Positions 265 through 45,697 of a DNA stretch of 64,000 nt are shown here, piece after piece. How positions within the stretch are numbered: position 1 is the stretch's first letter; each line of letters starts with the position of its first letter. The DNA lies in assembly GCA_902500055.1 (NCBI GenBank), contig GCA_902500055.1_4131.1; one strand, written 5' to 3'. Below the pieces are notes generated by a model that was given only the letters and a program-made list of their open reading frames with translations, was not told the DNA's origin and searched no databases. A program made the position numbers and the translations under genes. Source of the stretch: Escherichia coli (GTDB taxonomy: Bacteria > Pseudomonadota > Gammaproteobacteria > Enterobacterales > Enterobacteriaceae).

Positions 265-396
265 TTAGTCGAGAATAAATCTCGACTTGTGTTTTACTTT
301 ACCATTTTTCATTTCTTTTTTACGATCCACATGTGTCTGAGGCTTGTTAAACTCATTCATGTGTTTCTGTACGAAATTGTTTACTTTCTTAGCCAT
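265..396 (-). CDS. small Lys-rich basic protein (43 aa)
   Basis: Hand-translated; ATG at 396 with GGAG 6 nt upstream; MAKKVNNFVQKHMNEF... Confidence 0.35.
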   Translation of the reverse strand: MAKKVNNFVQKHMNEFNKPQTHVDRKKEMKNGKVKHKSRFILD

Positions 397-2237: not shown

Positions 2238-2767
2238 AACTTCTCCTTTATAGCTGTCATATTTAGAAGAAATTCAGTAAGCAATTCCTCCGTAACATGC
2301 TCTGTATACCAGAATATCACAATATCTTTTGAAAGTCGTGTATTCATAAAAATATCTACTAACTCTTTGTAGTACTCTAGCGTTTCGAGATTTGTGAGAA
2401 TTAACGAGTACTGAAAGAGTAATTCTTCTGTTAGATTAAATTCTGGATAAAGTAAATCATTGAACTCATGTGATGCAGTTTGAACTTTAATTTCTTTGAA
2501 GTTATTGGTTATACAACCGGAATAAATATTTCGGTGCAACTCTCTGTACAACGCAGCATAATCTATGAATTTTGCTTTAGGGTTAAAATCAAGAACACTT
2601 TCACCTTTATATGACAATCGGTGGAACGCCGAGAACATAGTCACTTCCCACGGTTGCTTAATATCTAGCTCAGTAATATCAATATTATTGGACAGAAGAA
2701 CCGTAAAAATCTCACCAATCTTTAATAGTAACTTAGTACGTGCCAGTGCTACCATCGGGTCAGTCAT
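2231..2767 (-). CDS. famA paralog, hypothetical protein
   Basis: 178 aa; core EELLFQYSLIL. Confidence 0.6.
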   Translation of the reverse strand: MTDPMVALARTKLLLKIGEIFTVLLSNNIDITELDIKQPWEVTMFSAFHRLSYKGESVLDFNPKAKFIDYAALYRELHRNIYSGCITNNFKEIKVQTASHEFNDLLYPEFNLTEELLFQYSLILTNLETLEYYKELVDIFMNTRLSKDIVIFWYTEHVTEELLTEFLLNMTAIKEKLC

Positions 2768-3180
2768 TATACACCTTCATATTCATCAAGAAAATCTTCG
2801 ATAATCATTTCAGCTTCATCCATATGCATAGCATCAACTTCAATGATGCGAACTTTAGATGCATCCCAAATCATAAAGCTAGGAACATTGTCTGGCTCGT
2901 AATCATTTTTGTACTGAACAGCATCATAACCTTGAGCAGTGCAATTCTCAATAAGTGAACGCCACTCATCATCACTGCCTAAATCTTCACACAGAAGCAC
3001 GTTATCAACATCAACTTCTAAGGTATGCAAGTATACTGTACATGCGTCTACTACGTTCAGTGGGCTTCTCAGCTTGCGTAATGCAGCTTCCAAAGCACTG
3101 TGTTTACCTCCCATATGAAGACCACCATACGGGATATAAAAGTTATCAATTTTTACAGTACTCGCATGATACAGTTTCAT
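2767..3180 (-). CDS. hypothetical protein (no famA core)
   Basis: 137 aa; MKLYHASTVKID...; acidic C-terminus. Confidence 0.5.
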   Translation of the reverse strand: MKLYHASTVKIDNFYIPYGGLHMGGKHSALEAALRKLRSPLNVVDACTVYLHTLEVDVDNVLLCEDLGSDDEWRSLIENCTAQGYDAVQYKNDYEPDNVPSFMIWDASKVRIIEVDAMHMDEAEMIIEDFLDEYEGV

Positions 3181-3774: not shown

Positions 3775-4366
3775 CTGGAACCACCATTTCTTGAATGTGC
3801 TTACATTTTATATTTTCCATATTGGTATGTAATATAATGCTGTGTTTACGCAATGATTTTACTTTATAGCACTCATTGAGTACTGAAATAATTCCCCATA
3901 ACTCTTCTACACTAATAGTGATAGGTTCACTTGTACTCAGTTGCATCAGTGCTGCTTGAACATCATCTTTGTTATTAATAGTGAACTGGATTCCTCTTTT
4001 GAGAATTTTAGTTTTTGGATTGTACTCAGCTAATACATCACCTTCTGGATAACCCTCATGAAGTAATAATGTTGTTTCAAAATCACCGCAGTTGAAGTTA
4101 ATTTCATCATAATCAGGTACACAAATGTTCCCTTCCCCGTACTCATTAGGTTCAGATTCTAGTGTTAAAATACGCTGATTCTCATTGCTCAGGATGATAG
4201 AATCATTCCAGTACTGTGTAGTATATGCACTACGTTTCTTTTGAAAGCACATACTCGACATTGGACCATACTTCTTGTATATGGACTTCTTGAACTCAAT
4301 AGCAGCAGGAGCCACCTTGATAACTTCACGAATTAAGTCAATAGCTTCTTGATAACTTTTTCTCAT
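3764..4366 (-). CDS. hypothetical protein (degenerate famA-like)
   Basis: 200 aa; in operon chain. Confidence 0.5.
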   Translation of the reverse strand: MRKSYQEAIDLIREVIKVAPAAIEFKKSIYKKYGPMSSMCFQKKRSAYTTQYWNDSIILSNENQRILTLESEPNEYGEGNICVPDYDEINFNCGDFETTLLLHEGYPEGDVLAEYNPKTKILKRGIQFTINNKDDVQAALMQLSTSEPITISVEELWGIISVLNECYKVKSLRKHSIILHTNMENIKCKHIQEMVVPDGL

Positions 4367-4914
4367 TTATCGTATCCATATAAAATATGATCTAGTGTAC
4401 TTTGTACTTCTTCATGAAAGAATGAAGGGTAAACTTGTATCAATTTATCTTTAAGTTCAAGGGAATGGCATAGTTCTAAAGTTTTGTAACAATCCTCGTA
4501 CTGTGCCAGATCATGTAATGTACTTAACTGAAAATGTTGTTCTTCGGAGTACAATAAATCATAAACCATATTATCGGATAAAAGATTAGATTTGATTGAA
4601 GGATCAAGTACTGTCTGGTGGTGACCAACCCAAAAGATAGCTTTTGAGTTAATGTTATTACAACCCCATCCTTTCCCCATCTTTTGGTGAATAGCAAATA
4701 CACAGGAATCATACAAATTAATGCTCAGACGTTCTTCGTCTGCATGGATAGTTACACCATCAATAGATAGTGTATATTTGAAATCCATAGCCCCCTCACT
4801 TCGTACACGAGAACTAAAGACCAGATATCGATGAATTATGGTATTGATTTTATCTGTCCATCCATCAACACATTTGGATGCACATAATGTAAAAAGATCA
4901 TGATTGTAGTTCAT
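4363..4914 (-). CDS. famA paralog, hypothetical protein
   Basis: 183 aa; core EEQHFQLSTLH; ATGA overlap with downstream gene. Confidence 0.6.
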   Translation of the reverse strand: MNYNHDLFTLCASKCVDGWTDKINTIIHRYLVFSSRVRSEGAMDFKYTLSIDGVTIHADEERLSINLYDSCVFAIHQKMGKGWGCNNINSKAIFWVGHHQTVLDPSIKSNLLSDNMVYDLLYSEEQHFQLSTLHDLAQYEDCYKTLELCHSLELKDKLIQVYPSFFHEEVQSTLDHILYGYDK

Positions 4915-4932
4915 AAAATTCTCCTTTAGGAC

Positions 4933-4961
4933 AATGTATCATACAAAAATACCAGAGTCAA
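4933..4961 (-). promoter_or_regulatory. sigma70-like promoter inside famA array
   Basis: Minus sense TTGACT-17 nt-TACATT, then AAAGGAG and the ATG of 4976..5557. Confidence 0.4.
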
Positions 4962-4975
4962 CCCCTGGTACAAAT

Positions 4976-5557
4976 TTAATCCATCATAAGTGGGATAATT
5001 GCCCATATCTTTTTCATAATCATATCTTCAGTAAAAACAAATGTTTTAGGAGCAGTATATGATATTGATACACCAAATGGAAGATGGATTGCATCATCAA
5101 TTATATTATGAATATCAAACCATGTTTTAACATAATCATACGGTGGAAGTTCATGAATTGTACTTAACTGAAAGTAATTCTCTTCACCAAAATCATTATA
5201 TTCAATTTCACAAATTTTAGTGAATTGATGATTCCATTTAGATATAATACTATTTTTATTATTGTACATAGTAGTTCTATGCATAAAACCATTTTTGCTA
5301 GTATGATTTGATATTACGTTTTCTTCAATGTCAGTATCTATTTTAAAATTCATATCAAAGTTGTAGTACGGACTTGACGATTCTTTGAATTTTAAATGTA
5401 AATTACGATTGTTATTAATTTCAATTTCAATACAAAACACATCTGAATCAAAACGATTAAACTTGTAATCGTTATCTTCCGGTAGATTCTGTATTTTTTT
5501 CATAATACTAAGCATAGGGTGTACTACACTTTTAATAAAATCATTTGTTATTTTCAT
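4976..5557 (-). CDS. famA paralog, hypothetical protein
   Basis: 193 aa; core EENYFQLSTIH. Confidence 0.6.
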   Translation of the reverse strand: MKITNDFIKSVVHPMLSIMKKIQNLPEDNDYKFNRFDSDVFCIEIEINNNRNLHLKFKESSSPYYNFDMNFKIDTDIEENVISNHTSKNGFMHRTTMYNNKNSIISKWNHQFTKICEIEYNDFGEENYFQLSTIHELPPYDYVKTWFDIHNIIDDAIHLPFGVSISYTAPKTFVFTEDMIMKKIWAIIPLMMD

Positions 5558-6050
5558 AGTATTCCTTTAGAACTTTATATGATTCAACAATACTATTTTG
5601 TGTATAATTTGAACTATATACAACAGCACTTGTTTTAGTTGACCATAGATATGACATAAAGGTTATAACACTACTACATGGACTTAATGTATTGTTTTGA
5701 AATTCAATTTCTTCAATGTTATCAGTACTGGTATATATGAATTGGAAAGTATCCATTGATTTATTGGACAGCGATACTATAGTAGAATCCGTACCGGGAC
5801 TATACATGAATGTCTCATTACTAATTGAACTATCATTAGTATATGATGGTTTGGGAATATAAATCAAACGCATGATATCGCGTTCAAGACCTGACTTATT
5901 ACTTTCCACCAAAGAAATCATATCTATATTTGATATATTTTCAACACTGACATGGAACTTTTTGTCGAGAATCACATCTCCATGAGAATTTTTATATGAA
6001 GACAAAATCTCATACATCTCAACCAATTCGCGTGCATTTAATAAACTCAT
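5541..6050 (-). CDS. famA-like paralog, hypothetical protein
   Basis: 169 aa; variant core EIEFQNNTLS. Confidence 0.5.
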   Translation of the reverse strand: MSLLNARELVEMYEILSSYKNSHGDVILDKKFHVSVENISNIDMISLVESNKSGLERDIMRLIYIPKPSYTNDSSISNETFMYSPGTDSTIVSLSNKSMDTFQFIYTSTDNIEEIEFQNNTLSPCSSVITFMSYLWSTKTSAVVYSSNYTQNSIVESYKVLKEYYENNK

Positions 6051-6475
6051 GTTTTGTCTCTTAATGAAAGAATATCCTTAGTATAAACTGAAACAGAAAT
6101 ATGATTATATTTCATCATTAATTTATACACATAAGAAGCTAGTACTAAATCGTAAATTAATTTAGTATTATACAGTACTTGGTATTGTAACGCAAGTGAA
6201 TCAATATCATCTTTACTTTCAATATCCAGAAATGTACCAAAAATTGTAGTACCGTGGAGATGAAAAGTGGAATTAATGCAATCAATGCATTCATTGTCCA
6301 ACAGAGTAGATGCTGATGTCCTCGGTGAATCCCAAATAGTCACTGCGTGTATGTCCTCAACGAACAAATCTATCCATGTTTTGTGTCGTTGTCTTTTTTG
6401 TGTTTTATAATTTTCTGGATTTGAAAGTGTAGTTTCAATTATATCCCATATGTACAAACAATCATCTCTTGTCAT
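6047..6475 (-). CDS. hypothetical protein
   Basis: 142 aa; ATGA-coupled in chain. Confidence 0.5.
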   Translation of the reverse strand: MTRDDCLYIWDIIETTLSNPENYKTQKRQRHKTWIDLFVEDIHAVTIWDSPRTSASTLLDNECIDCINSTFHLHGTTIFGTFLDIESKDDIDSLALQYQVLYNTKLIYDLVLASYVYKLMMKYNHISVSVYTKDILSLRDKT

Positions 6476-7053
6476 TATAGCACCTTATCCATTGCTGAAT
6501 TTAATGCTTTTAAACGATCTACATTCAAATTATTGAAGATGTACGTTCCTAACATGTGGAAATCGAACTGGTTCTTTTTGTATTCATGATAAATTAAACT
6601 ACAAAAAATAACAGTACTAAGAACCTCTTCAGGTATAACAGTGCTCATCTGGAACAGTTCTTCTTCAACTGTACTTGAATCTGGATTGATAGCTTTTAAC
6701 ACATACTCTTCATCACCGAATAGAACTTTAATATTATATAAAACACCAACAGTACTAATATGGAATGGGTGATGTGAAAAACTTCCATCATCCTTAATTT
6801 GTATATCGGTTCTAATCTCACACTCTTCATTACTTTTACTTTTATTTTTTACAATACAAATATTTCTGGCCCCAGAAATAGTAAGAATACCGTGGTCGTA
6901 ATATTCATTTGACCAACATTTAGATGAAATTGCTACATCACGGATGAGATATTGTTTTTCAATTTCTTTCGCACTACCAACAATTGATAGCATTTTTTTA
7001 CTGATATCATATAATAACTGATGGCGTTCTGTCATATAACTATAAGCGTTCAT
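6475..7053 (-). CDS. famA paralog, hypothetical protein
   Basis: 192 aa; core EEELFQMSTVI. Confidence 0.6.
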   Translation of the reverse strand: MNAYSYMTERHQLLYDISKKMLSIVGSAKEIEKQYLIRDVAISSKCWSNEYYDHGILTISGARNICIVKNKSKSNEECEIRTDIQIKDDGSFSHHPFHISTVGVLYNIKVLFGDEEYVLKAINPDSSTVEEELFQMSTVIPEEVLSTVIFCSLIYHEYKKNQFDFHMLGTYIFNNLNVDRLKALNSAMDKVL

Positions 7054-7624
7054 ATTTTTCCTTAACAGATTCTATATTTTGAAGTAGTGTATTCAGAACA
7101 TCAGTCTTGCAATTGATAAAATCATTGTACATAACTAGTTCACCACAATCAAGAACTTTTGCAGTATCGTAACAAAGCATTAAGTACTCGAATTCTTTGT
7201 AATTGTCCAACAATGATTTCTGGAAAATGAATGCATCTCGAATATCTTCACTTTGGTCTAATTCTGGTGGAACTTCCAAACCAATAAAACCATCATCTTC
7301 ACTGAAATTAGATTCTACAATTTTATTCATTTTTTCATGTAATGCATTCGCAAATACCATATTATAAGAAATAGAACCAATACGTTCACGATTTCTGGAT
7401 GTGCGAATGTACATAGTAATCGTATCCCATGAACTTTTAATTTTTTTAGAAAATTCATAAGTTTTATATACATCCAACTGAACTGAACCAAAACGATGTT
7501 TGGATTTGTTTTCAATTTTCAGTCGATAATTATCAAATTCAACAATTTCTGTAATGTCATGAATCTCTGAAAGTTCTGCAATGTCATGCATGAGTCTCAA
7601 AATTTTAGTTCTGATATGGTTCAT
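7040..7624 (-). CDS. famA-like paralog, hypothetical protein
   Basis: 194 aa; variant core DAFIFQKSLL. Confidence 0.55.
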   Translation of the reverse strand: MNHIRTKILRLMHDIAELSEIHDITEIVEFDNYRLKIENKSKHRFGSVQLDVYKTYEFSKKIKSSWDTITMYIRTSRNRERIGSISYNMVFANALHEKMNKIVESNFSEDDGFIGLEVPPELDQSEDIRDAFIFQKSLLDNYKEFEYLMLCYDTAKVLDCGELVMYNDFINCKTDVLNTLLQNIESVKEKYERL

Positions 7625-8199
7625 TGTGCATCCTCGAATTTAACAGGTACATGTTCATTAATGAAATTCTTAAGAGCCTGTACTAAATCCTCTAATTCTT
7701 TTGTACTGTATTTTAAAATTGTTTTAAAGTGAATCAAATCTTTTCTTTCCATGATCTTTGGAATTTTATATGCTAACTCTAAACAGCGTACAGTACTGGC
7801 ATCATACAAAAGGTTTGCGTTGAACATTAGAACATTGTATTCATCAGATGAAATTTTATAATTATATGTATCAATCACTTCATGTGTGTATAAATTCTTA
7901 TACACAATTTTATTCTCACTGAAGTTTGAGCAAACACACAGATGATCGTTGTAAAATGAAGAACGATAATCTTGTTTACGTTGTACATCTGCTATGATTT
8001 GTAATACTGTATATTTTTCTTCAGAATCCAACTCAATGTTAGCATAACTGCTCGCAGTTTCAGATACAAGGATATTGATGTTATATTTCTCATTAACTTT
8101 AATGTACTGGCGGGAACCAGTATCAGGAATGAACTTAAAACAATGCTTCAGAAGTAATGTGACTTCTTTAATTAATTCAGTACTCATAGATTCCTCCAA
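7621..8199 (-). CDS. hypothetical protein (degenerate famA-like)
   Basis: 192 aa. Confidence 0.5.
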   Translation of the reverse strand: MEESMSTELIKEVTLLLKHCFKFIPDTGSRQYIKVNEKYNINILVSETASSYANIELDSEEKYTVLQIIADVQRKQDYRSSFYNDHLCVCSNFSENKIVYKNLYTHEVIDTYNYKISSDEYNVLMFNANLLYDASTVRCLELAYKIPKIMERKDLIHFKTILKYSTKELEDLVQALKNFINEHVPVKFEDAQ

Positions 8200-8214
8200 C
8201 TCTATTTAAAATCA

Positions 8215-8243
8215 AGTATAACACACCTGAATGCTCTTGTAAA
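8215..8243 (-). promoter_or_regulatory. sigma70-like promoter
   Basis: Minus sense TTTACA-17 nt-TATACT, then GGAGGAA and the ATG of 7621..8199. Confidence 0.4.
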
Positions 8244-8253
8244 GCCATAAACA

Positions 8254-8274
8254 CAAAAAGACCCATACGGGTCT
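8254..8274 (-). terminator. intrinsic terminator after 8275..8841
   Basis: Hairpin AGACCCGTATGGGTCT followed by a T-run on the minus sense strand. Confidence 0.5.
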
Positions 8275-8841
8275 TTATTTGGGTAAAACACTGTCAATGT
8301 ACGCTAGAACCTCATCTCGAAGGTACGTTCCATCTATAGTTAGGTAATAGTTCATGGGAATATCACTCCCAACCTTCTCATAAATTTTCATACATGATAT
8401 CACATCTTCATCACAAATGGTACTCAATTGAAAAAGAACTTCATCGGTTAACGGTACGATATCATGTTTAGATAGGGGATTTGTATTTTCATTCAACACA
8501 ATATTAATCAAGTTAGGAGTATTCTTTGACGAAATATAACGATGCTTACTACGAATTACCATTCTCGATAGTGAAATACTGGAACTCCATCTTGGATCAA
8601 CATCTTCATATGATAACGATATTAACATCTCGTGAAAATCTTGAAATTTCATTGACGCATAATATGTTTTATCCTCACCGTACATACCAAATGATTTAAA
8701 TTCAATATCCCCTACTTTGTATGTATCGACATCATTATTTGAGAACTTTATTAAACTATTAATTAGTCTAATTAGAATATCATCTTTATCCATTCTTAAA
8801 TAACTCCAAGTGCATGTCGTATAAATCTCTGAAGTCTTCAT
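8275..8841 (-). CDS. famA paralog, hypothetical protein
   Basis: 188 aa (start may be internal Met at 8793); core DEVLFQLSTIC. Confidence 0.6.
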   Translation of the reverse strand: MKTSEIYTTCTWSYLRMDKDDILIRLINSLIKFSNNDVDTYKVGDIEFKSFGMYGEDKTYYASMKFQDFHEMLISLSYEDVDPRWSSSISLSRMVIRSKHRYISSKNTPNLINIVLNENTNPLSKHDIVPLTDEVLFQLSTICDEDVISCMKIYEKVGSDIPMNYYLTIDGTYLRDEVLAYIDSVLPK

Positions 8842-9349
8842 AGAAATCTTTTTCTTCCAGAATATCCTTTAAACTAGGAAACACTGCCATAATTTCTTCT
8901 ATATCCGATTCCATGAAAAACCCTGATGGATTATCGTAGTTTTGTAACAGATAACTGAAAGTAATAATGTAAAGAAGTTCATTAGGATTATGAATTAAAC
9001 TTAGCTGGAACATAGCTGATTCTAAATCTGATTCAGTACTAAGATCAACCCAACGTGAATTTCTATAATCAATTCGCACTTGACTTGTATTTGGATTCCA
9101 TGTGAAGCAATGTGTACCAATATGACCTATACAACCAACCCTTGTACTGTCTCCGGTATCAACACTGATATCAACAAATAGTTCAATACCGATATCGGTT
9201 GATGTTACACGACCTTTTTTCAGAAATAAATCATTATCCTTACGAAATTGTTTGGATGAAAGAGTGTCAATGATGCACATCAATGTTTTTGCAAATGCAA
9301 CACAATGACGAAATTCAAGCCTATGAAATTGGTAATCATTGATATTCAT
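8786..9349 (-). CDS. famA paralog, hypothetical protein
   Basis: 187 aa; core ESAMFQLSLIH. Confidence 0.6.
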   Translation of the reverse strand: MNINDYQFHRLEFRHCVAFAKTLMCIIDTLSSKQFRKDNDLFLKKGRVTSTDIGIELFVDISVDTGDSTRVGCIGHIGTHCFTWNPNTSQVRIDYRNSRWVDLSTESDLESAMFQLSLIHNPNELLYIITFSYLLQNYDNPSGFFMESDIEEIMAVFPSLKDILEEKDFYEDFRDLYDMHLELFKNG

Positions 9350-9888
9350 AATTCAACCCTCAATATTTTATCAGCAATTGATATAACCTTATCATTGAAT
9401 ACATTACCAATCTCAATCCTTATATACATAGCAGGTGGAATCTTTCCTTGTAGTGAATAATATGTTTGTATACCTAAGTACTCATTATCTGATAATGAAA
9501 ATTTGATTCTCTCCATATCAATGTCTGTTACTGGTAAATCTATCATTTCATAATGGTAGTCAACGTTTTCAGTGTATATTTTATCGAAGTAATTTGAATA
9601 ATCACTACTAATGTAGATGCTATCATCACGAATAATTACTTTATAATCAGAAGGTTCAAATTTATCTTTACAGGAAAAGAATGCATCATCTATTTTCTCT
9701 TCTCTTATACCGAATAACATTTTACCATCATATTTTACATCAAGAATACTACCTAGTATATTAATGGTACAATGCTCATCAATATTATGATGTAATGAAC
9801 GTTTTTTGTATTTTGGATTAATGAAAATTTTCATTAATTTTATACAAATGTCAGTAATGCATTTTACATTCTCATTTTCTATGTACAT
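9346..9888 (-). CDS. hypothetical protein
   Basis: 180 aa; no clear core. Confidence 0.5.
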   Translation of the reverse strand: MYIENENVKCITDICIKLMKIFINPKYKKRSLHHNIDEHCTINILGSILDVKYDGKMLFGIREEKIDDAFFSCKDKFEPSDYKVIIRDDSIYISSDYSNYFDKIYTENVDYHYEMIDLPVTDIDMERIKFSLSDNEYLGIQTYYSLQGKIPPAMYIRIEIGNVFNDKVISIADKILRVEL

Positions 9889-10375
9889 TAAAAGCCCTCT
9901 TTAATTCTTTTACATTTTTAATGAATACTTTCATTGCAGAAATCTCAAAAGATAATGTATTAAATTTGCAGTACTTTTTAAAGTACGACATAATATATAA
10001 CATTTTGAGTTCTTTTTCTGTATAAATTAAACTGTTTTGAAAGTAACTTTCTTCGGAAATGTCCGTAAGAAAAGAATAAAATGTATTTTGCTTGTGCACA
10101 ATTTTAATACTATCAGACCAAGATTTGTATGAAACGTAATCAGTACGTGCAAAATCATATAGTGAATTAGATGTATCTGTGTATGTTTCCGAGAACACAA
10201 TCTTATATATCTTATCTTGAATTCGAGAACATATGTACCTATGGTCATCTGTCTCACTGATTGCAATGTATCTATGGAGTAAATCTTTATGAGCATTGAT
10301 GAACTCAAACACTTCTAAACACTCCCTAGCGAACTTCATAGTTTCTCTGTACTTTCGGTTCATTAGTCTCTCCAA
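9872..10375 (-). CDS. famA paralog, hypothetical protein
   Basis: 167 aa; core EESYFQNSLIY. Confidence 0.6.
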   Translation of the reverse strand: MERLMNRKYRETMKFARECLEVFEFINAHKDLLHRYIAISETDDHRYICSRIQDKIYKIVFSETYTDTSNSLYDFARTDYVSYKSWSDSIKIVHKQNTFYSFLTDISEESYFQNSLIYTEKELKMLYIMSYFKKYCKFNTLSFEISAMKVFIKNVKELKRAFNVHRK

Positions 10376-10776
10376 ACTTTACCAGGGAAGTGTTTCTCGT
10401 AGTACTCATCATCACTTAACATATAATCAGGAGTTTCTACTTCTATGGTTTTGAAGATTGTTTCTGGAATGTGTGTGACTTTATTGGGTTGTACTTTATG
10501 TTCGCGTAAAACCTTCTGTATCGCTCCTAGACGTTGTAAATCGATACATGTAGGAAAGACTAAGCTGTACTGAAATAACTCATCAGGGGTCATTATAGAC
10601 ACATCTTTAGCTTGTTTGATTTGATAATTAGTACTAATGAATATATCAAATCCTTGTACAGCATTATAGCTTACATAGGTTGTTTTATTTTTGTCAATAG
10701 GAGCACTTAAACGATATCCATATATCCCGTGTTGGTCAACAACACAACGTTGCATAATTTTAATCATTTCTAACAT
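10363..10776 (-). CDS. famA paralog, hypothetical protein
   Basis: 137 aa; core PDELFQYSLVF. Confidence 0.6.
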   Translation of the reverse strand: MLEMIKIMQRCVVDQHGIYGYRLSAPIDKNKTTYVSYNAVQGFDIFISTNYQIKQAKDVSIMTPDELFQYSLVFPTCIDLQRLGAIQKVLREHKVQPNKVTHIPETIFKTIEVETPDYMLSDDEYYEKHFPGKVWRD

Positions 10777-11122
10777 AATTTACCTCATATGTATTGTAAC
10801 ACCACGGTTTAACAATATCGATTTGTATATCATTTGCTTCATGAAAATGTTTAAGTACCTTCTGGTATTCCATTATTTCGTACACATCTTCAGTACTTAT
10901 AGTGCTCTCCTGAAATAATTCCTCTTCTGATAAAGTACTATAATCAGGGATTTTTATTTCTGAATATATATCATTTATCTTTCCATTATATTGATAAATC
11001 TGGATATAAAATTGATTGTATTCTGGAATATAGGTTACATAATGGTTGTGGTTGATTACATATCTTGAAACAAAGTATTCAGTACCATCAGTCATGTACT
11101 GAATTGTTGTCGTATTTTGCAT
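10760..11122 (-). CDS. famA paralog, hypothetical protein
   Basis: 120 aa; core EEELFQESTIS. Confidence 0.6.
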   Translation of the reverse strand: MQNTTTIQYMTDGTEYFVSRYVINHNHYVTYIPEYNQFYIQIYQYNGKINDIYSEIKIPDYSTLSEEELFQESTISTEDVYEIMEYQKVLKHFHEANDIQIDIVKPWCYNTYEVNYVRND

Positions 11123-11582
11123 TCAAATAATCCACGCATTTATAGTATACTGCTAAATCTAAAAAGAATCGTTGTTTGTATTTGTAATGATGAAGTAGTG
11201 CACCATAAAATAACATAGCATTAAGTACTTTTACATCATGAATACAAGAACCCTGAAAGTACATTTCCTCTGACATGAATACTAAATCATTATACGGAAC
11301 AAATACTGCTTCTCTAAATGTATCAATATTAATCTTCAAATCAGACCCAGGGCAATATGAAATGTATTCTGCTTTGTAATGAAAGTCATTATCATCAAAG
11401 TACTCCGCGTAGATTTGATTACCTCTACCATTAGTAAATGCTAGTCTTCCTTTAGATGAACTGAACTCATCGTATTGAAACATACCACCAAAAGGTTTAG
11501 GACTTCTGAACTCCTTTGCAATGCGATAGATATTTTCTGCAAATTCTAAAACACCATCGTAATCATATTCTGTAGTAATCAT
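11088..11582 (-). CDS. famA paralog, hypothetical protein
   Basis: 164 aa; core EEMYFQGSCIH. Confidence 0.6.
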   Translation of the reverse strand: MITTEYDYDGVLEFAENIYRIAKEFRSPKPFGGMFQYDEFSSSKGRLAFTNGRGNQIYAEYFDDNDFHYKAEYISYCPGSDLKINIDTFREAVFVPYNDLVFMSEEMYFQGSCIHDVKVLNAMLFYGALLHHYKYKQRFFLDLAVYYKCVDYLNAKYDNNSVHD

Positions 11583-12055
11583 AAACCATTTTTCTCCAGG
11601 TACTCAATAATACAATCGACATTGTTCAGGTCCAAGTAGAAATGATCACTATCGGAATTTAGTTCATTTTTAAGGGCTGTTAAAATCACTGAACTGAAAA
11701 CAATCCTCTCTGGATACACAGTATTGTACTGGAAGAACTCTTCTTCAGTGTTAATTACAATCGTATCAAATGCTTCATTTATAAGAAGATGATTGTAGTA
11801 TTTGAAATTATCTGAACTTGGGAAATGGTATGAAATAAAATCACCACTTGGTACTTCATCAAGCACTCTAATACTACAAGTTGATTCATCTGAACTATAG
11901 AGTAACCCATCCATAAAGGAAAGGTATCCATTTCGTTTTTTGACTGTATGTTTGCCCACTGAAAAATCTTCAGTAACATTCGAAAGGAATTTATAAACCC
12001 TGATAATGTCTTTTGCTATTTTTTGTGCATTGCTAAATGATAGGTCTTTGGACAT
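11579..12055 (-). CDS. famA paralog, hypothetical protein
   Basis: 158 aa; core EEEFFQYNTVY. Confidence 0.6.
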   Translation of the reverse strand: MSKDLSFSNAQKIAKDIIRVYKFLSNVTEDFSVGKHTVKKRNGYLSFMDGLLYSSDESTCSIRVLDEVPSGDFISYHFPSSDNFKYYNHLLINEAFDTIVINTEEEFFQYNTVYPERIVFSSVILTALKNELNSDSDHFYLDLNNVDCIIEYLEKNGL

Positions 12056-12065
12056 TGTGTTATAA

Positions 12066-12118
12066 CCCTTTACAATTAATATAAAGGGATTATATCACAA
12101 AAAATCGGTGGGTGTCAA
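12066..12118 (-). promoter_or_regulatory. sigma70-like promoter plus 5' leader hairpin
   Basis: Minus sense TTGACA-18 nt-TATAAT followed by palindrome CCCTTTA..TAAAGGG before the ATG of 11579..12055. Confidence 0.4.
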
Positions 12119-12699
12119 GAGTGGTTGCGAAGTTCTACCATTTCTTCCCAAACTAATTGGTAATCTTCTAAGTCCAGATAGAAGTCTTCATTCCAGTGCT
12201 CATGAAAGTACTTATACATGAATAGAACTCCTAAATCGTATGCAGGAAACAATAATGATAGTTGAAAGTAGTATTCCTGATTTAAAACTATATCAATAAA
12301 CTCTAATGTACGTATGCCACCTTTCGATGAACGTATCTCAATGTGTGAGGTATCCTTCATACTGTAACACATGAAACCACCTCTAAATTCTGGATCATAT
12401 TCACATTCGAACTGCTCACTGTTGTTATAGAAATCTCTCCCACTTTCTTGATCTTTCGGTCTACGTACTGATACATGAATATTTTTATCACGGTACATTG
12501 AACGATTTAGTATTTTCAAACATTTGAACTTATCTTCTTTAATGAACTTGATAATATCAATTATATCTTGTGCTGTACTGATAGCTGATTCGAATGTATC
12601 CAACTTAAGATGATTATATTGGGTTCCAGAGTTCATTTTTTTATCTAACATATAAACCTCATAATTCATACATTTTTGATTTGAACTGCATATGACCAC
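12115..12699 (-). CDS. famA paralog, hypothetical protein
   Basis: 194 aa; core QEYYFQLSLLF. Confidence 0.6.
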   Translation of the reverse strand: MVICSSNQKCMNYEVYMLDKKMNSGTQYNHLKLDTFESAISTAQDIIDIIKFIKEDKFKCLKILNRSMYRDKNIHVSVRRPKDQESGRDFYNNSEQFECEYDPEFRGGFMCYSMKDTSHIEIRSSKGGIRTLEFIDIVLNQEYYFQLSLLFPAYDLGVLFMYKYFHEHWNEDFYLDLEDYQLVWEEMVELRNHS

Positions 12700-13000
12700 C
12701 TATTTCACATGGATAACAATTCATAATTTTGTTCAATAGAATCTGGTATTTTTTAATAACTTCTATATCAATTTTTATATTACTATTAAAAACTAATGAT
12801 TCTTGAAATAATTCCCCCTCGTCAAGTGAAGTAAAATCATTTATCTTCAAGGGTATATTGTTGCATCGCAAGGAGAATGTATTTTCATCACGAATTAAAG
12901 TATAGAAATCATTATGTTTTTTATTATAATCAAATTTAACAAGTAGTAGTTTAATATGAGTAGCGTACATTACTTTAACTAATTCAGATTCACGTCGCAT
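12659..13000 (-). CDS. famA paralog, hypothetical protein
   Basis: 113 aa; core EGELFQESLVF. Confidence 0.6.
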   Translation of the reverse strand: MRRESELVKVMYATHIKLLLVKFDYNKKHNDFYTLIRDENTFSLRCNNIPLKINDFTSLDEGELFQESLVFNSNIKIDIEVIKKYQILLNKIMNCYPCEIGGHMQFKSKMYEL

Positions 13001-20243: not shown

Positions 20244-20439
20244 CTTAATCTCTACTATAATTAATAAGGTAAACTCCAATATAAGGAGCACGTTCGGCGG
20301 CGGGGTATTTTTTGTTTCAGGAAACATGAACTGTACTCTGAAAAACACAATATAAAACTTTATATTAAACATATACCTTAGCATGTTTTTCAGCGGAAAT
20401 TTTTTTGACCCCCCTGCGGCCTGTCAAAATGAAACGTCT

Positions 20440-35887: not shown

Positions 35888-35941
35888 GATAAAACTCCTT
35901 AATTTAGGAGGGAGAACCATTTCCCCCTCTCTATGTAAAAC

Positions 35942-35970
35942 ATTATACTTGATTCTAAGTACTATGCAAG
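35942..35970 (-). promoter_or_regulatory. conserved early-type promoter
   Basis: Minus sense CTTGCA-17 nt-TATAAT, then leader hairpin and the ATG at 35887. Confidence 0.5.
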
Positions 35971-35976
35971 TACTTT

Positions 35977-36309
35977 TTACATTTTAATACCTGGATTCAG
36001 GTAGCGGTGAGATCCATATTCTGGATCGGTTTCGGTCCAGTACTGTAAATCGATAGTACCTTTCGCGTTAATCTTGTCTACCAGCTTATTCATCTTAGCG
36101 TATACTACATCAGCATCGATGCGTTTAAAGCCAGTGGCTTTAGTGAAGTAGTAGTGATTTGCTTCACTATCATTCAGGATGTACCGAGAACCGTTTGCCG
36201 TTTGTGCGATAATGATTGAGTATTCTACGTTACGGTCGAGGCCGTCGATGAATACAGAGGAAACATTAGTACGGATGAAAGCTTTAACGATAGCGATTGA
36301 AGTAGTCAT
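35977..36309 (-). CDS. hypothetical protein
   Basis: 110 aa; AGGAG upstream. Confidence 0.55.
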   Translation of the reverse strand: MTTSIAIVKAFIRTNVSSVFIDGLDRNVEYSIIIAQTANGSRYILNDSEANHYYFTKATGFKRIDADVVYAKMNKLVDKINAKGTIDLQYWTETDPEYGSHRYLNPGIKM

Positions 36310-36363
36310 TTTGAATCTCCTAACTTTGTGGGCCGTCGCACCATTGCCGCCCTACGAGATACA

Positions 36364-36391
36364 TTATTGCAGTACTGATATACTTTGTCAA
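36364..36391 (-). promoter_or_regulatory. conserved early-type promoter
   Basis: Minus sense TTGACA-17 nt (contains CAGTACTG)-AATAAT. Confidence 0.45.
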
Positions 36392-36461
36392 TACTTTTTT
36401 TATTAATAGTTTTCACTCCACCAGCAGATAGTTACTCACCGTTATTAACTATATATTTTGG

Positions 36462-36540
36462 ATACACTTATGCACCCTGTGGGCTAGTTTTTGTCTATGC
36501 GTATATAATAGCAAAGGGACTGACCGGAGTCAATCCCTTT
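36462..36540 (+). repeat. conserved intergenic unit, copy 1
   Basis: ATACACTTATGCACCCTGTGGGCTAG ... hairpin AAAGGGACTGACCGGAGTCAATCCCTTT plus T-run; also at 39212, 42222, 45607. Confidence 0.6.
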
Positions 36541-36555
36541 TTTTATTCTTTTTTG

Positions 36556-36756
36556 TTAGATGATTCTCCAATCATCAACGATCATGGTAAGATACCGAAC
36601 CAGTGATTCGAGTGATTCGTGTTCTCGATAGTCTGCCGCACCGCCAGCGGTACAAGTACAGCCGATTAAGCCGTTTTGCAATTCCTTAATCTGTACATCG
36701 ATAAGGTTGGCTTTAGCTTCTTTCAGTACTTCAACCAGGGCGATAGCGATAGACAT
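36556..36756 (-). CDS. hypothetical protein
   Basis: 66 aa. Confidence 0.5.
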   Translation of the reverse strand: MSIAIALVEVLKEAKANLIDVQIKELQNGLIGCTCTAGGAADYREHESLESLVRYLTMIVDDWRII

Positions 36757-36778
36757 AATGTTTTACTCCAAACTATTG

Positions 36779-36839
36779 GCGGGAGAACTATTCCCCCGCT
36801 CTATGTAAAACATTATACATTACTGGTTAGTACTGTCAA
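36779..36839 (-). promoter_or_regulatory. conserved promoter plus 5' leader hairpin
   Basis: Minus sense TTGACA-N-TATAAT followed by GCGGGGGAA..TTCTCCCGC palindrome. Confidence 0.5.
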
Positions 36840-36846
36840 ATAGTTT

Positions 36847-37104
36847 TTATGAAATATCTTCGATGTAGTCGGCCCATTTCATTTTTTCAGTACTGTCAAG
36901 TGCAATCGGATTGCTAGGATCAAACCATTCACCATTCCCGCAATACATCCCCACGGCGACGGTTTTATATCCATCCTGGGCCGCACTCCACGACATTGCA
37001 CGATAGATATGGCCTTTAACTGGTTGCAGTACTGGTAACGTTTTATGGTCTTCTACGTAGGCCATAGCTTGAGGATTTACCCGATATTGTGTGAATTGAT
37101 CCAT
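36847..37104 (-). CDS. hypothetical protein
   Basis: 85 aa. Confidence 0.5.
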   Translation of the reverse strand: MDQFTQYRVNPQAMAYVEDHKTLPVLQPVKGHIYRAMSWSAAQDGYKTVAVGMYCGNGEWFDPSNPIALDSTEKMKWADYIEDIS

Positions 37105-37180
37105 TATGTTTCCCCTTGTAGTTAGTAAAGTTATTACATCAGTACTATCAAGCTATGTCAATAGTACTGAAATAAAACTT

Positions 37181-37405
37181 TTAGATTAGATTATTGAGGC
37201 CGTTGATGGTAGACTCGCTTTCTTCTTTCTCCCATTGGCGGTAGTACTTCCATGCTTCATGATATGTGGCGATTAGTTCATCTTTTTGATCCTGGTTACA
37301 TGCCAGTACTGAATCACGGTGAGCGGTGTTATAGATAGAATCGAATGATTTCTTCTCTTCTGCCAGGTTAGCTACTTCCCGCATCAGTTCATCAAAGTTA
37401 GCCAT
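37181..37405 (-). CDS. hypothetical protein
   Basis: 74 aa; AAAGGAG upstream. Confidence 0.55.
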   Translation of the reverse strand: MANFDELMREVANLAEEKKSFDSIYNTAHRDSVLACNQDQKDELIATYHEAWKYYRQWEKEESESTINGLNNLI

Positions 37406-37423
37406 TTTATTACTCCTTTTAGT

Positions 37424-37480
37424 GGGGGAGGATATCTCCCCCTATGCAAAACATTATACTTTGTTTTAGTTATTATGCAA
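37424..37480 (-). promoter_or_regulatory. conserved promoter plus 5' leader hairpin
   Basis: Minus sense TTGCAT-16 nt-TATAAT, then GGGGGAGATATCCTCCCCC palindrome. Confidence 0.5.
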
Positions 37481-37736
37481 GTACTTTTTTCATATAAACA
37501 TTAAATTCTACACCGCCGTAACCTTCCACGATGATATGTTTTGCGTTATCACGCTTGCACATAGTGAAACCGTTGTTGATATGTTCTGCATTTTCCAGGG
37601 ATACATCACCGATTGCAGCACATACGGCACTAATAACAGTATTCCGCAAAGTACTGGTATCATTAGCGGTCATAGTAGTTTGCAGTACTACGTTGTCGTA
37701 TACGTGTGCATTGATAGTGATTTCGATAGTGTTCAT
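37473..37736 (-). CDS. hypothetical protein
   Basis: Track ORF trimmed to Met19 (MNTIEITIN...); upstream part is leader hairpin read-through. Confidence 0.5.
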   Translation of the reverse strand: MNTIEITINAHVYDNVVLQTTMTANDTSTLRNTVISAVCAAIGDVSLENAEHINNGFTMCKRDNAKHIIVEGYGGVEFNVYMKKVLA

Positions 37737-37823
37737 GGTGTATCTCCTGGACTTGAGGGGAAACCATTTCCCCCTCTCGATATAAAACATTATACGTTAA
37801 TCTAACTACAATGCAAGTACTTT

Positions 37824-38015
37824 TTAAATTTTATTTCCGATATAGTCCGGCATGTTCTTTTCAGTCATACGCTTTGCTAATGTCTGCATATGGCTTATAG
37901 CGTTCAAGGTGTCTTCCTCCAGGGATGAATCAAGATAATCAGGATCATTCTTCACCTTGCAATGATTATGATAGCGTAGTACAGCCAGTACTTTTTTAAC
38001 TTCTTCAACTGTCAT
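37824..38015 (-). CDS. hypothetical protein
   Basis: 63 aa. Confidence 0.5.
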   Translation of the reverse strand: MTVEEVKKVLAVLRYHNHCKVKNDPDYLDSSLEEDTLNAISHMQTLAKRMTEKNMPDYIGNKI

Positions 38016-38284
38016 AATAAGTACCCCACTTCGTTAGCTTTCAGGTTAGTATCAATCATCAGTGGATTTTTGTAGTTCACAAAACGATTAGTTTTCTCGA
38101 TAGCGAATCCCATATAATCCAGCTTGCTTACAGTACATTCATTCTTAAAAACTTCTTTCGCTGTATCGATGGCTGATTGCATGGATAACCGCCCATCTAA
38201 ATTAATGTTTCCAAATGATCCACCAGCAGAAGTAGGATTACCGTTCATATCTTTAATGATCATAGTAGCGGAGTAGCTGGACAT
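38012..38284 (-). CDS. hypothetical protein
   Basis: 90 aa; ATGA-coupled to downstream gene. Confidence 0.5.
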   Translation of the reverse strand: MSSYSATMIIKDMNGNPTSAGGSFGNINLDGRLSMQSAIDTAKEVFKNECTVSKLDYMGFAIEKTNRFVNYKNPLMIDTNLKANEVGYLL

Positions 38285-38372
38285 AATTTTGTTTCCTTTT
38301 ATTGGTGGGGGAGAACTATTCTCCCCTTGATGTAAACTATTATACAGTACTGATATACTTTGTCAAATACTT

Positions 38373-38777
38373 TTATTCGCCCATATAGATTAAGTTATCA
38401 TCGCCTACATAGGGATCGCAAACGTTGATTTCTTCGCAGTACTTCGTGAATACATCGCCATAGTGACCTAAACCACGATCCCAAAAACCAGTTCCGTGAC
38501 CTTCGCGGGTAAGGAACAGATCATGACCAGCTTGCTCATAACCGTAATCAATAAACATACCGCGAACTACTTCCAGATCATTACCGTGTTTCTCAATGAA
38601 GCGAGAACATGCAATCACCGCCGCTTGACGTGCTTCATCAGATAACTCATAATCTTCCAGGTAATCGCCGTTATCATTATGTACAGTACTGAATTGCATA
38701 GCTTCAATGTAACCAGCGACCATTGCAGCATGATTTTTATCGTTGGCGATATTCCGAGCAAGATTAGTAGTAGTCAT
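38373..38777 (-). CDS. hypothetical protein
   Basis: 134 aa; motif REGHGTGFWDRG. Confidence 0.55.
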   Translation of the reverse strand: MTTTNLARNIANDKNHAAMVAGYIEAMQFSTVHNDNGDYLEDYELSDEARQAAVIACSRFIEKHGNDLEVVRGMFIDYGYEQAGHDLFLTREGHGTGFWDRGLGHYGDVFTKYCEEINVCDPYVGDDNLIYMGE

Positions 38778-38798
38778 GATTTTATTCCTTTTAGTATC

Positions 38799-38857
38799 GG
38801 GGAGAACTATTCTCCCCTTGATGTAAACTATTATACAGTACTAAGATACTTTGTCAA
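38799..38857 (-). promoter_or_regulatory. conserved promoter plus 5' leader hairpin (archetype)
   Basis: Minus sense TTGACA-16 nt (AGTACTG)-TATAAT, GTTTACATCAA, then GGGGAGAATAGTTCTCCCC, then AAAGGAA and ATG. Confidence 0.55.
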
Positions 38858-38861
38858 ATAC

Positions 38862-39083
38862 TTAATTACGTTTAAAATGATATGTACCTTTATCATCCTG
38901 TACGCCCCATACTGATTTACCATCAACACCAGTGAAGCCGGATTGTAATTCAATATGGAAACCATTATTATCAACTACAAAAACTTTTTTATTTTCATCC
39001 CGATAACATTGATATTCTGAATCAACATTAAAGGCCGCATCATTCAGACGATTGGAAGCGTAAATGCAAGTCATTGTAGTCAT
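38862..39083 (-). CDS. hypothetical protein
   Basis: Track ORF trimmed to Met12 (MTTMTCIY...). Confidence 0.5.
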   Translation of the reverse strand: MTTMTCIYASNRLNDAAFNVDSEYQCYRDENKKVFVVDNNGFHIELQSGFTGVDGKSVWGVQDDKGTYHFKRN

Positions 39084-39211
39084 GATTTTATTCCTTAATA
39101 TACCAGGGAGAACCATTTCCCCCTCTCGATATAAAACATTATACTTGATTCTAAGTACAATGCAAGTACTTTTTAAAAAATAGTTTTCAGTACTGAATAC
39201 TTATATAATAG

Positions 39212-39295
39212 ATACACTTCCGCACCCTATGGGTCAGTGAGTTATCTCTCAATGGATATATAATAGCAAAGGGACTGACCGGAGTCAATCCCTTT
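39212..39295 (+). repeat. conserved intergenic unit, copy 2
   Basis: GATACACTTCCGCACCCTATGGGTCAG ... AAAGGGACTGACCGGAGTCAATCCCTTTTTT. Confidence 0.6.
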
Positions 39296-39306
39296 TTTAA
39301 TCTTTT

Positions 39307-39891
39307 TTATCGTGTTACCTTACTTGCTGCCACATCACGCTTTTTATAGTACTGATTCCAGATATTGCAGGTTAAACCGTAATCAAGTACTTTAATAAGG
39401 CCATTACGATCCTGGCCGATATTCTGTTTTCTGATATCTCTTATCGTTAGTGTTGATAATGTATCATCGACGTGTTGTAGTGCATCAGCAAAGCGGTGCT
39501 GGCGTTCGATTGCATTACGTTTAATATTGTACTTTAATTCATTGCACGCGTTTACGTGCTTCACACTACCTTTGCTTGCAGTACTCAACCGATCCATAAC
39601 GATAAACATATTATCAGGATCGCATAAATGCATATGCACCTTTGCAAAGTACTGTTTCAACTGAGGGCGGTCATAGTCTAAAAAATTCCATACCTTACAT
39701 TCAGTTTCATTTTGTTCTACACCCGCATCACAATTCGCGACCTTAATCACTAACCGATCATTTAAAGCGAAAACTATACGGGAAGAACCAGCACCGATGA
39801 TCTCCAGGCCAGCTAACCGACAAGCTGAAAGGATCTCTTTGTTGGTTTCCATTTCTGACAGTGTACGGATGAATTTAGTATAATTACGCAT
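39307..39891 (-). CDS. Hanks-type (eukaryotic-like) Ser/Thr protein kinase-like protein
   Basis: Trimmed to Met20 after AAGGAG; Gly loop IGAGSSRIVF, Lys in VIKV, catalytic-loop-like RDIRKQN, DYG in place of DFG. Confidence 0.55.
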   Translation of the reverse strand: MRNYTKFIRTLSEMETNKEILSACRLAGLEIIGAGSSRIVFALNDRLVIKVANCDAGVEQNETECKVWNFLDYDRPQLKQYFAKVHMHLCDPDNMFIVMDRLSTASKGSVKHVNACNELKYNIKRNAIERQHRFADALQHVDDTLSTLTIRDIRKQNIGQDRNGLIKVLDYGLTCNIWNQYYKKRDVAASKVTR

Positions 39892-39922
39892 TGCATGTTC
39901 TCCTTGAGTTAATGAAACTATA

Positions 39923-40165
39923 TTACAGTACTTTACTATCAATGGCAACTACTTTTTTAACATTAACGGCGTGGATCACTTCCTTCGTGTTTTTAGTACT
40001 GAATACTTTCGCCGCTCCTTGTTCGACCGTGATACGATAGCGACCATTAACATCAACCATATTAATAAAGTCCGGCGTGCTGAATGGTGTTGTTTTACAT
40101 TTGAGTACTGTTAACAGTTCCACCAGCGATGTAGTTTCTTTGATACGTTTTTCTAAAGTAATCAT
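39923..40165 (-). CDS. hypothetical protein
   Basis: Track ORF trimmed to Met20 (MITLEKRIK...). Confidence 0.5.
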   Translation of the reverse strand: MITLEKRIKETTSLVELLTVLKCKTTPFSTPDFINMVDVNGRYRITVEQGAAKVFSTKNTKEVIHAVNVKKVVAIDSKVL

Positions 40166-40222
40166 TTTGTTTCCCCCGTGTTGGTATGTACATATAGTAC
40201 TAAAACATTTGAGTACTGTCAA

Positions 40223-40441
40223 TTAGATAATATTATATTTCTTTAAAGATAATGCGTCTTGGGTTGGCTGATACTCGATACCGTTCCCATTATTGACTTC
40301 AACTAATAAACCTTTGTCAATTAGTTTTTTAATAGTACGATACCCCTGTTGAAAATTGGTAAAATGTGAATCATTACGAAAGGTATAACCGTGCTTAACT
40401 GCTTCATCAATAGTTTTCTTTTCGATTTTAGATAATTTCAT
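40223..40441 (-). CDS. hypothetical small protein, possible DNA-binding
   Basis: Trimmed to Met20 (MKLSKIEKK...); shares leader sequence with the upstream gene. Confidence 0.45.
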   Translation of the reverse strand: MKLSKIEKKTIDEAVKHGYTFRNDSHFTNFQQGYRTIKKLIDKGLLVEVNNGNGIEYQPTQDALSLKKYNII

Positions 40442-40494
40442 TTTGTTTCTCCCGTGTTGGTATGTGTACATAATACTAAAACAATTGAGTACTG

Positions 40495-40749
40495 TCAACG
40501 TGATATTAGTTTTATTTTCTTATTATATTGTTGGTGTTCATATAGGTTTATTTTTCCTGTGTTCTCTATTACTATTCTGTTGTTAGTGTCCACATCGATT
40601 ACACGCAGTTTCCCGTTGCTTAACTTCCTTGGTAATAGGTTACCATTAATAAACTCATTAGCAAGCTGTACGGCCTTTGTGATGATTCTCTTCGGTGCTT
40701 TATAGTGTACCCGTAAGATGTTATCTTTATATAGTTGAACCTTAATCAT
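40495..40749 (-). CDS. hypothetical protein
   Basis: 84 aa. Confidence 0.5.
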   Translation of the reverse strand: MIKVQLYKDNILRVHYKAPKRIITKAVQLANEFINGNLLPRKLSNGKLRVIDVDTNNRIVIENTGKINLYEHQQYNKKIKLISR

Positions 40750-40810
40750 TTTGTTTGTCCTATAAAAAAGGCGGGATCAGTTCCCGCCGTGTTGTTAGTA
40801 CTGCAAGTTA

Positions 40811-41206: not shown

Positions 41207-41301
41207 GGTATACATCCTATTAGTTGAGTTAGTACTACAAGTTAGAGTCTATTATAAAGTACTATCTGGGCAATGTCAAATAGTACTTTAAATGGATTCT
41301 A

Positions 41302-41625: not shown

Positions 41626-41712
41626 TTTTATTTCTCTCTCTTTGTTAGGAGGGGAACCATTTCCCCGCCTTGATGTAAACTATTATACAGTACTAAGATA
41701 CTTTGTCAATAC

Positions 41713-45692: not shown

Positions 45693-45697
45693 TTCAT

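Follow-up and report, generated by a model that had tools for sequence, protein, structure and literature searches.

The early transcription units of T-even and T5-type phages carry multiple sigma70 promoters, leaky intrinsic terminators and terminator-promoter pairs. In phage T4, the genes e, soc, 49 and I-TevI have hairpins that inhibit the ribosome-binding site (RBS), with a promoter lying in the 5′ arm (PMC3014915, PMC2988022). Here we compare with these systems the famA array, about 40 related small genes spread over about 29 kb of a 64,000-nucleotide stretch of DNA deposited as Escherichia coli (contig GCA_902500055.1_4131.1 of assembly GCA_902500055.1; the window below), and in particular the promoter, terminator and hairpin modules in its intergenic gaps.

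By sequence identity to phage records, the window derives from an Asteriusvirus jumbo coliphage of the 121Q/PBECO4 type. Region 4000-13000 matched 33 phage records and shares 98.8% identity with ECO103 4-12-1 and 98.3-98.7% with phAPEC6, G17 and 121Q. In PA5oct, a distant relative, RNA sequencing has shown TTGAC/TATAATA promoters where transcripts begin and stem-loop terminators where they end (PMC7318152). Genes of the window run on the minus strand from about 54 kb down to about 270, and the minus strand is the coding strand of the array. The famA family named in the initial annotation is real: jackhmmer started from one member recovered 34 paralogs at 915-29090 (minus strand), a number to be read as at least 34, as several more open reading frames (ORFs) carry the family motif. 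Between 4363 and 13422 neighbouring genes abut or overlap except at three gaps, the only ones longer than 40 nt, and the three sigma70-like sites postulated earlier are present on the minus strand in exactly these gaps. Two further gap promoters lie upstream in the array. We consider it probable that the array is transcribed as overlapping units, which are set by sigma70-type extended -10 promoters and intrinsic terminators. The elements are as follows.

Gap 1: 4915-4975, minus strand; holds terminator T1 and promoter P1 (module 1).
Gap 2: 8188-8274, minus strand, with the start of the gene at 7621 taken from the G17 annotation (8200-8274 otherwise); holds terminator T2 and promoter P2.
Gap 3: 12056-12114, minus strand; holds promoter P3 and a palindrome (module 3).
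P3: 12118-12089, minus strand; predicted promoter, TTGACA (12118-12113), 18-bp spacer, TGa, TATAAT (12094-12089).
P2: 8243-8215, minus strand; predicted promoter, TTTACA-17-TGtTATACT, 10/12 consensus match with TG.
P1: 4961-4933, minus strand; predicted promoter, TTGACT-17-TGaTACATT, 9/12 with TG.
T2: 8276-8246 (hairpin 8276-8257), minus strand; AAAGACCC-GTAT-GGGTCTTT followed by TTGTGTTT, beginning at the stop codon of gene 8275-8793.
T1: 4971-4939 (hairpin 4971-4949), minus strand; GTACCAGGG-GTTGA-CTCTGGTAT followed by TTTTGTATG, 4 nt past the stop codon of gene 4976-5557.
Further predicted gap promoter with a terminator: 24392, minus strand, module 24364-24430; GCCTGTATCGTAAGATATGGGC TTTTTT, then TTGACA-17-TGtTATCAT.
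Further predicted gap promoter: 28346-28374, minus strand; TTGACA-17-TGaTATAGT, right after a stop codon and without a terminator.

All five promoters belong to one class, with a TTGACA-like -35 hexamer, a spacer of 17-18 bp and a TGn extended -10 element. The hexamers of P3 match the consensus at 12 of 12 positions, with the TG present, and its -35 hexamer overlaps the TGA stop codon (12117-12115) of gene 12115-12651. P2 precedes gene 7621-8187, whose Shine-Dalgarno (SD) sequence is GGAGG. The -35 hexamer of P1 sits in the loop and 3′ arm of T1. Start sites were deduced from the -10 positions; they are predicted at about 12082 for P3 (a purine 7 nt past the -10 hexamer), at about 8207 for P2 and at about 4926 for P1, the latter on the edge of the SD sequence AAGGAG (4926-4921) of gene 4363-4914.

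All 33,968 minus-strand positions of 1-34 kb were scored with a promoter matrix that approximates the textbook hexamer frequencies of E. coli and includes a spacer penalty and a TG bonus. The site at 28374 took rank 1, that at 24392 rank 2, P3 (12118) rank 3, P1 rank 7 and P2 rank 13. All five stand in non-coding sequence, which makes up about 5% of the scored region, and all five have TGn. By this rank test their placement in non-coding DNA, upstream of genes and in the same orientation, is above chance. The motifs thus suggest at least five gap promoters of one type in the array. Late-type TATAAATA or ATAAATA and CBB-type TGAAACG motifs were absent from every gap examined. Two candidates beside the modules were rejected: the motif TTTAAATA after P2 is not conserved, and the antisense promoter-like site at 12049-12076 (plus strand) was put down to the palindrome together with the start codon. 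Three apparent gaps (21672-21950, 22467-22670 and 24498-24902) proved to be coding sequence. None of the modules is a repeated or mobile cassette, each being unique in the window.

Both terminators have the features of intrinsic terminators, namely a G+C-rich stem-loop with a U-tract directly after it, on the coding strand and 3′ of a stop codon. T2 folds at -11.0 kcal/mol (z -3.5 against shuffles) and is followed by UUUUUGUGUUU with 5 U; T1 folds at -12.8 kcal/mol (z -4.3) and is followed by UUUUUG, also with 5 U. Both were called independently by ARNOLD in the GenBank record of G17 (MK327931), and P1-P3 and the module 3 hairpin carry no annotation in the GenBank records inspected. The array contains three terminator-promoter pairs: 24430/24392, T2/P2, where T2 lies 13 bp ahead of P2, and T1/P1, where T1 overlaps the P1 -35 hexamer. 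The one clear terminator described initially, that preceding P2, was thus correctly seen, and T1 had escaped mention.

The relatives split into a clade with 94-99% identity and a clade with about 82% identity. A protein search for more divergent orthologous loci, together with one metagenome contig, gave the same two clades only, so that the divergence available at these two levels does not permit a covariation test with power. Against the 82% clade, identity is 93% for P2, 91-94% for T2 and 87-89% for module 3; it is 62-65% for gene 11579-12055 downstream of P3 and 82% overall. In the leader 3′ of P2 it drops to 44% in fEgEco12 and TH47. The P2 -10 hexamer is the consensus TATAAT in PBECO4, CMSTMSU, fEgEco12 and TH47. 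The -10 hexamer and TG of P3 are invariant in the relatives, and so is its -35 hexamer save for TTGACC in ph0011. Purifying selection on the hexamers was accordingly seen for P2 and P3, and not for P1, as the ph0011 clade lacks that promoter. In T2 the stem does not vary, and substitutions and one 1-nt insertion fall in the loop only; in T1 we found one G.U to A-U change and one loss at the stem end, within a clade of near-identical genomes and with no double covariation.

Module 1 is an indel of about 50 bp, missing from ph0011, CMSTMSU, fEgEco12 and TH47. Where it is missing, only 11-12 nt lie between the upstream stop codon and the next start codon, with neither terminator nor promoter. A search for the module found it in 20 records of the 121Q/PBECO4 clade, each genome having a single copy, and nowhere else, apart from incomplete matches in two further Salmonella-phage records. 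In the record of Salmonella phage SD-2_S15, deletions take the P1 -10 element and the SD sequence together with the 3′ half of T1 (equivalent of 4915-4950), and a deletion of about 110 bp takes P2, the SD sequence and the first codons of the 7621-8187 gene, with T2 kept (about 8150-8250). The SD-series genomes are 310-326 kb long with patchy coverage, and the deletions may be genuine or may stem from the assembly.

The third module has an additional structural element.

Palindrome: 12100-12055, minus strand, imperfect, 46 nt, predicted RNA hairpin; 5′ arm 12100-12080 (with TGTGATATAAT), loop 12079-12075, 3′ arm 12074-12055.

Its layout is TTGTG-a-TATAA-t-CCCTTTATA / ttaat / TGTAAAGGG-TTATA-a-CACAA. 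The inverted repeat CCCTTTA/TAAAGGG (12088-12082 / 12072-12066) is unique in the window and forms only the core of this longer palindrome; by itself the core hairpin (12088-12066) folds at -10.3 kcal/mol (z -3.1). The 5′ arm carries the extended -10 element of P3 with the hexamer at 12094-12089. The 3′ arm carries the SD sequence AAAGGG (12071-12066) and ends at the A (12055) of the ATG of gene 11579-12055. RNA of the full hairpin folds at -19.1 kcal/mol (z -4.86, with 0 of 200 shuffles as good), and RNA beginning at the predicted start 12082 at -0.4 kcal/mol. The same difference is seen in all relatives, in the variants of eight of them with -16.8 to -23.3 kcal/mol for the full hairpin versus 0 to -0.7 kcal/mol from the start. 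Among the 89 gene starts of 1-34.5 kb, this hairpin is the most stable upstream structure (mean -8.0, standard deviation 3.4), and no second such hairpin was found between genes of the array. Across the relatives 95.8% of the cells remain paired. Most of them carry an A to T change that closes an A.A mismatch; changes of C to T and of A to G leave G.U pairs; and the remaining changes affect the loop, the loop-proximal pair or the outermost stem pairs.

The repeat had been described in the initial annotation as a leader hairpin following the promoter. It is present and it folds, but the label is wrong: the hairpin starts right after the -10 hexamer, so that the predicted start (about 12082) falls inside the 5′ arm, and the structure would therefore belong to read-through RNA rather than to the P3 leader. 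RNA born at P3 would lack the 5′ arm and hence have an open RBS. No terminator lies between gene 12115-12651 and the hairpin, so any read-through RNA must cross module 3. Masking of the RBS there is a tentative proposal, to which we give somewhat less than an even chance.

From the motifs, ranks, positions, conservation and fold energies we infer the following scheme. RNA arriving from upstream would be joined by RNA from P3, which would re-initiate without a terminator ahead of it. P3 would drive eight genes, down to T2, where both RNA streams would stop at least partly. P2 would restart transcription 13 bp past T2 and drive six genes, as far as T1. The weak P1, confined to the 121Q/PBECO4 clade, could restart the last ten genes; otherwise they would depend on read-through of T1. 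These ten genes would run to the hairpin at 287-267. On read-through RNA the module 3 hairpin would form and gene 11579-12055 would be poorly translated, and on P3-started RNA, devoid of the 5′ arm, its RBS would be accessible. That several of these promoters and terminators are in use appears likely; for P1 taken singly we are inclined to doubt function, though not strongly. The strong promoters and their non-random placement, with conservation everywhere but in module 1, together with the two terminators make a single start for the whole array unlikely, and in this respect the initial proposal of several units instead of one operon holds in silico. The units, however, are not discrete. As P3 has no terminator upstream and a -35 hexamer lying over a stop codon, they would overlap by read-through, and the boundary at module 1 is clade-specific. 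The further suggestion that subsets of paralogs are regulated separately finds no support in the gaps, where the promoters all share one class and motifs of the late or CBB type do not occur. A single class for all five argues instead for re-initiation or boosting within one temporal class.

Several observations weigh against this scheme. Consensus sigma70-like matches are not enriched over shuffles: 1-20 kb has 120 where 129 are expected, and 20-35.5 kb has 74 where 87 are expected. Promoter look-alikes embedded in coding sequence at 10739, 10697 and 7035 are as well conserved as the gap promoters, so conservation alone is no proof of use. P1 is the weakest case, with its 9/12 match, its restriction to one clade and a leader of just about 12 nt, and module 1 must be dispensable because a whole sister clade lacks it. 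The gap promoters also differ from the stereotyped early promoters of this phage, having no A-tract/GTACT upstream element and a spacer of 17-18 bp, not 16. The phage encodes its own sigma70-family factor (PMC7247149), which may read the gap promoters in place of the host factor. Transcript 5′ or 3′ end data for Asteriusvirus were not found in the searchable literature. In the module 3 hairpin no double compensatory change was detected in the relatives aligned, which counts neither for nor against the fold; with only two clades at hand, its conservation could reflect a constraint on the promoter, the SD sequence or the DNA itself. The benefit of masking is moreover not obvious if the upstream promoters and P3 are both of sigma70 type.

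In a rival reading all the sites would be non-functional look-alikes in AT-rich DNA, with one long transcript coming from the early promoters (35-54 kb) and the gaps serving as mere spacers. The lack of enrichment and the dispensability of module 1 in the sister clade agree with this, as does the position of the array directly downstream of about 27 strong early promoters in the same orientation. It is hard to reconcile, however, with five high-ranked gap promoters out of about 34,000 positions that all fall in the 5% of non-coding sequence and all bear TGn, with hexamers and terminator stems that are better conserved than the genes on either side, next to a diverging leader, or with terminator folds at z -3.5 to -4.3, and we regard it as improbable. 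Another possibility accepts the five promoters as functional and assigns them to the phage sigma70-family factor as a middle class, so that the whole array would come on together once the early genes had been expressed. Their common TGn and 17-18 bp spacer fit this idea, and so does their lack of the A-tract/GTACT element, the 16-bp spacer and the ACAT-hairpin leader found at the roughly 27 early promoters; a sigma70-like factor is encoded by both phAPEC6 and CBB. On the other hand, the TGAAACG (-35) class predicted for CBB and GAP32 is absent here, and hexamers at or near the E. coli consensus should be used by the host holoenzyme, which makes this assignment rather unlikely in our view.

Two other explanations concern module 3 alone. 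Cleavage by RNase III takes a duplex of about two helical turns, and the imperfect duplex of about 21 bp with a bulge/internal loop, which lies between cistrons without a U-tract or an upstream terminator, could be a processing or mRNA-stabilising hairpin on read-through RNA, like the intercistronic sites of T7. Yet its stem encloses the SD sequence and the AUG, its 5′ arm falls exactly on the -10 element in the geometry of T4 e and I-TevI, and no other such hairpin is found between array genes; processing and masking are also compatible with each other. We consider this function unlikely. The palindrome could also act in the DNA, as an operator at -15 to +27 of P3 for a dimeric phage or host regulator that makes P3 repressible: the inverted repeat overlaps the start site as well as the -10 hexamer, and conservation over the whole 63-bp module is 87-89%. 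But CCCTTTA..TAAAGGG occurs nowhere else in the 64 kb, so there is no regulon; the tolerated G.U-compatible transitions matter for RNA and not for DNA recognition; and no candidate regulator was identified. The probability of an operator is accordingly small. Translational masking of read-through RNA leads to a more specific model, in which module 3 uses a host-type promoter as a switch that responds to the origin of the transcript: the first gene would be translated from P3-born RNA only, following the logic of T4 gene e with opposite polarity and inside a hyper-expanded paralog array, and the read-through could include RNA from AATAAATA (20441-20448). We offer this model as a speculation that is on balance doubtful.

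The octamer just mentioned contains the only sense-strand ATAAATA in the window. It lies at 20441-20448 (minus strand), at the stop codon before the gap 20385-20439, and is invariant in G17, PBECO4 and fEgEco12, while the length of the adjacent G-run varies (6 versus 8). As a possible late-type promoter, it could supply transcripts to the portion of the array that lies upstream of P3. ATAAATA forms the core both of T4 TATAAATA and of the motif that CBB and GAP32 are predicted to have at late promoters. Over both strands of the whole window this heptamer is nearly absent, with 2 occurrences versus 50 ± 6 in dinucleotide-preserving shuffles, and TATAAATA has no occurrence. Two promoter-like sites inside coding sequence also scored highly, namely 1591-1563 (minus strand; TTGACA-17-TGtTATTAT, rank 4) and 10739-10711 (minus strand; TTGACC-17-TATCGT, rank 8), the second being nearer to the consensus in the 82% clade. 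Each may be an internal promoter or a chance match.

The distal end of the array and the region upstream of it contain other elements.

Terminator-like hairpin: 267-287, minus strand, at the distal end of the array; overlaps the end of the 44-codon gene 266-397.
Early promoter modules: 35900-55300, minus strand, about 27 copies.
Repeated units of about 93-138 nt: 36461-36553, 39216-39308, 42222-42314 and about 45567-45704; related units at 44289, 47664, 47958 and 52517 (minus strand) and at 50419 and 52345 (plus strand).
Degenerate repeats with 8-bp periodicity (CGTCTAGC / CATCCAGC ...): 54749-54900, in a large non-coding region between divergent gene blocks.

Nearly every small gene at 35-54 kb has its own early promoter module, which consists of an A-tract, GTACTTGACA, a 16-bp spacer often with AGTACTG, TATAAT and then (A/G)TTTTACAT. 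It is a design different from that of the famA-array promoters. In about 15-18 copies a 5′ leader hairpin comes next (GGGGAGAA..TTCTCCCC, GCGGGAAC..GTTCCCGC and others), whose stems vary between copies with pairing preserved. The units of about 93-138 nt have a promoter (TTGACTCCGGTCAGTCCCTTTGCTATTAT or TTGACA..TGGCATAAT), followed about 30 nt on by a conserved (A/G)CCCAC(C/A)GGGTGC element. An ORF is not obvious in them, and they could encode small RNAs; scans of the window gave no Rfam or tRNA match to them. Rfam searches returned no relevant family, either at the gathering threshold over the whole window or by E-value in 4800-12300, the sole match (K10_TLS, E 0.43) being a chance one, and a scan for tRNA and tmRNA found none. 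The repeats at 54749-54900 look iteron-like, and the GC skew changes sign in the non-coding region that holds them, at about 55-56 kb.

The proteins of the array were compared at the level of sequence and of predicted structure. In the famA alignment Phe-Gln is invariant within a motif given as EExxFQxS(T/L) or EExx(F/Y)QxS(T/L). In some copies this stretch is EEMYFQGS or EEGYFQGS, to the eye similar to a TEV/3C protease site. In the AF2 model (pLDDT 78) the motif lies in a confident helix, which makes it probably structural. The family has no Pfam match and matches only PHROGs of unknown function. No PDB fold reached Z >= 5 (Z below 4), and the structural neighbours in BFVD are only uncharacterised proteins of RaK2, GAP32 and SP27. 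A description of the family was not found in the literature searched. The array also includes gene 2767-3180 (minus strand), which is not a famA member; the ph0011 record gives it the label 'putative ADP-ribosyl transferase' and gives gene 12115-12651 the note 'Phi92_gp213'.

Promoter and terminator punctuation of this kind is ordinary, textbook phage operon architecture, and two of the elements are already in GenBank; the one uncommon feature is the promoter set within the module 3 hairpin. What the analysis adds to the annotation of a genus of 350-kb phages is five concrete promoter calls and two confirmed terminators, which divide a block of about 40 hypothetical genes into testable units. 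If the model for module 3 is true, gating of translation by a promoter within a hairpin is no longer confined to the late promoters of T4; if it fails, ordinary operon architecture is left, with no conceptual change.

Like the overlapping early/delayed-early units of T-even and T5-type phages, the array consists of packed, translationally coupled small genes with promoters only in rare gaps, and a terminator is followed at once by a promoter (T2/P2, T1/P1 and 24430/24392). Unlike them, it has no MotA-type middle promoter motif, and the use of its sites is predicted only. The gap promoters share with E. coli extended -10 promoters the TG at -15/-14, the -10 hexamer and the 17-18 bp spacer, but they have a near-consensus -35 hexamer, which the classic extended -10 promoters do not need. 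Among jumbo phages the same kinds of elements occur in the RaK2-like group to which this phage belongs (CBB, PMC5259590; PA5oct, PMC7318152; G17, MK327931), although the published RpoD-like promoters of CBB are of the UP-element early class and so unlike those in the gaps (PMC5259590).

The closest parallel to module 3 is the T4 class of gene e, soc, 49 and I-TevI/II/III (McPheeters et al. 1986). As in that class, a stable hairpin encloses the SD sequence and the AUG, a -10-type element lies in the 5′ arm, RNA born at the promoter would lack the arm, read-through from upstream genes may occur, and the structure is conserved among related phages. The differences are that the promoter is a sigma70 extended -10 one and not of the gp55-type late class (TATAAATA), that gene 11579-12055 is a member of a paralog array and not a late gene stranded in an early region, and that module 3 is known here from its sequence only. 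Module 3 thus seems to work like the T4 e / I-TevI class without being a strict member, since its promoter is not a late one, and it may be seen as a new instance, with a variant promoter type, of the known T4 device.

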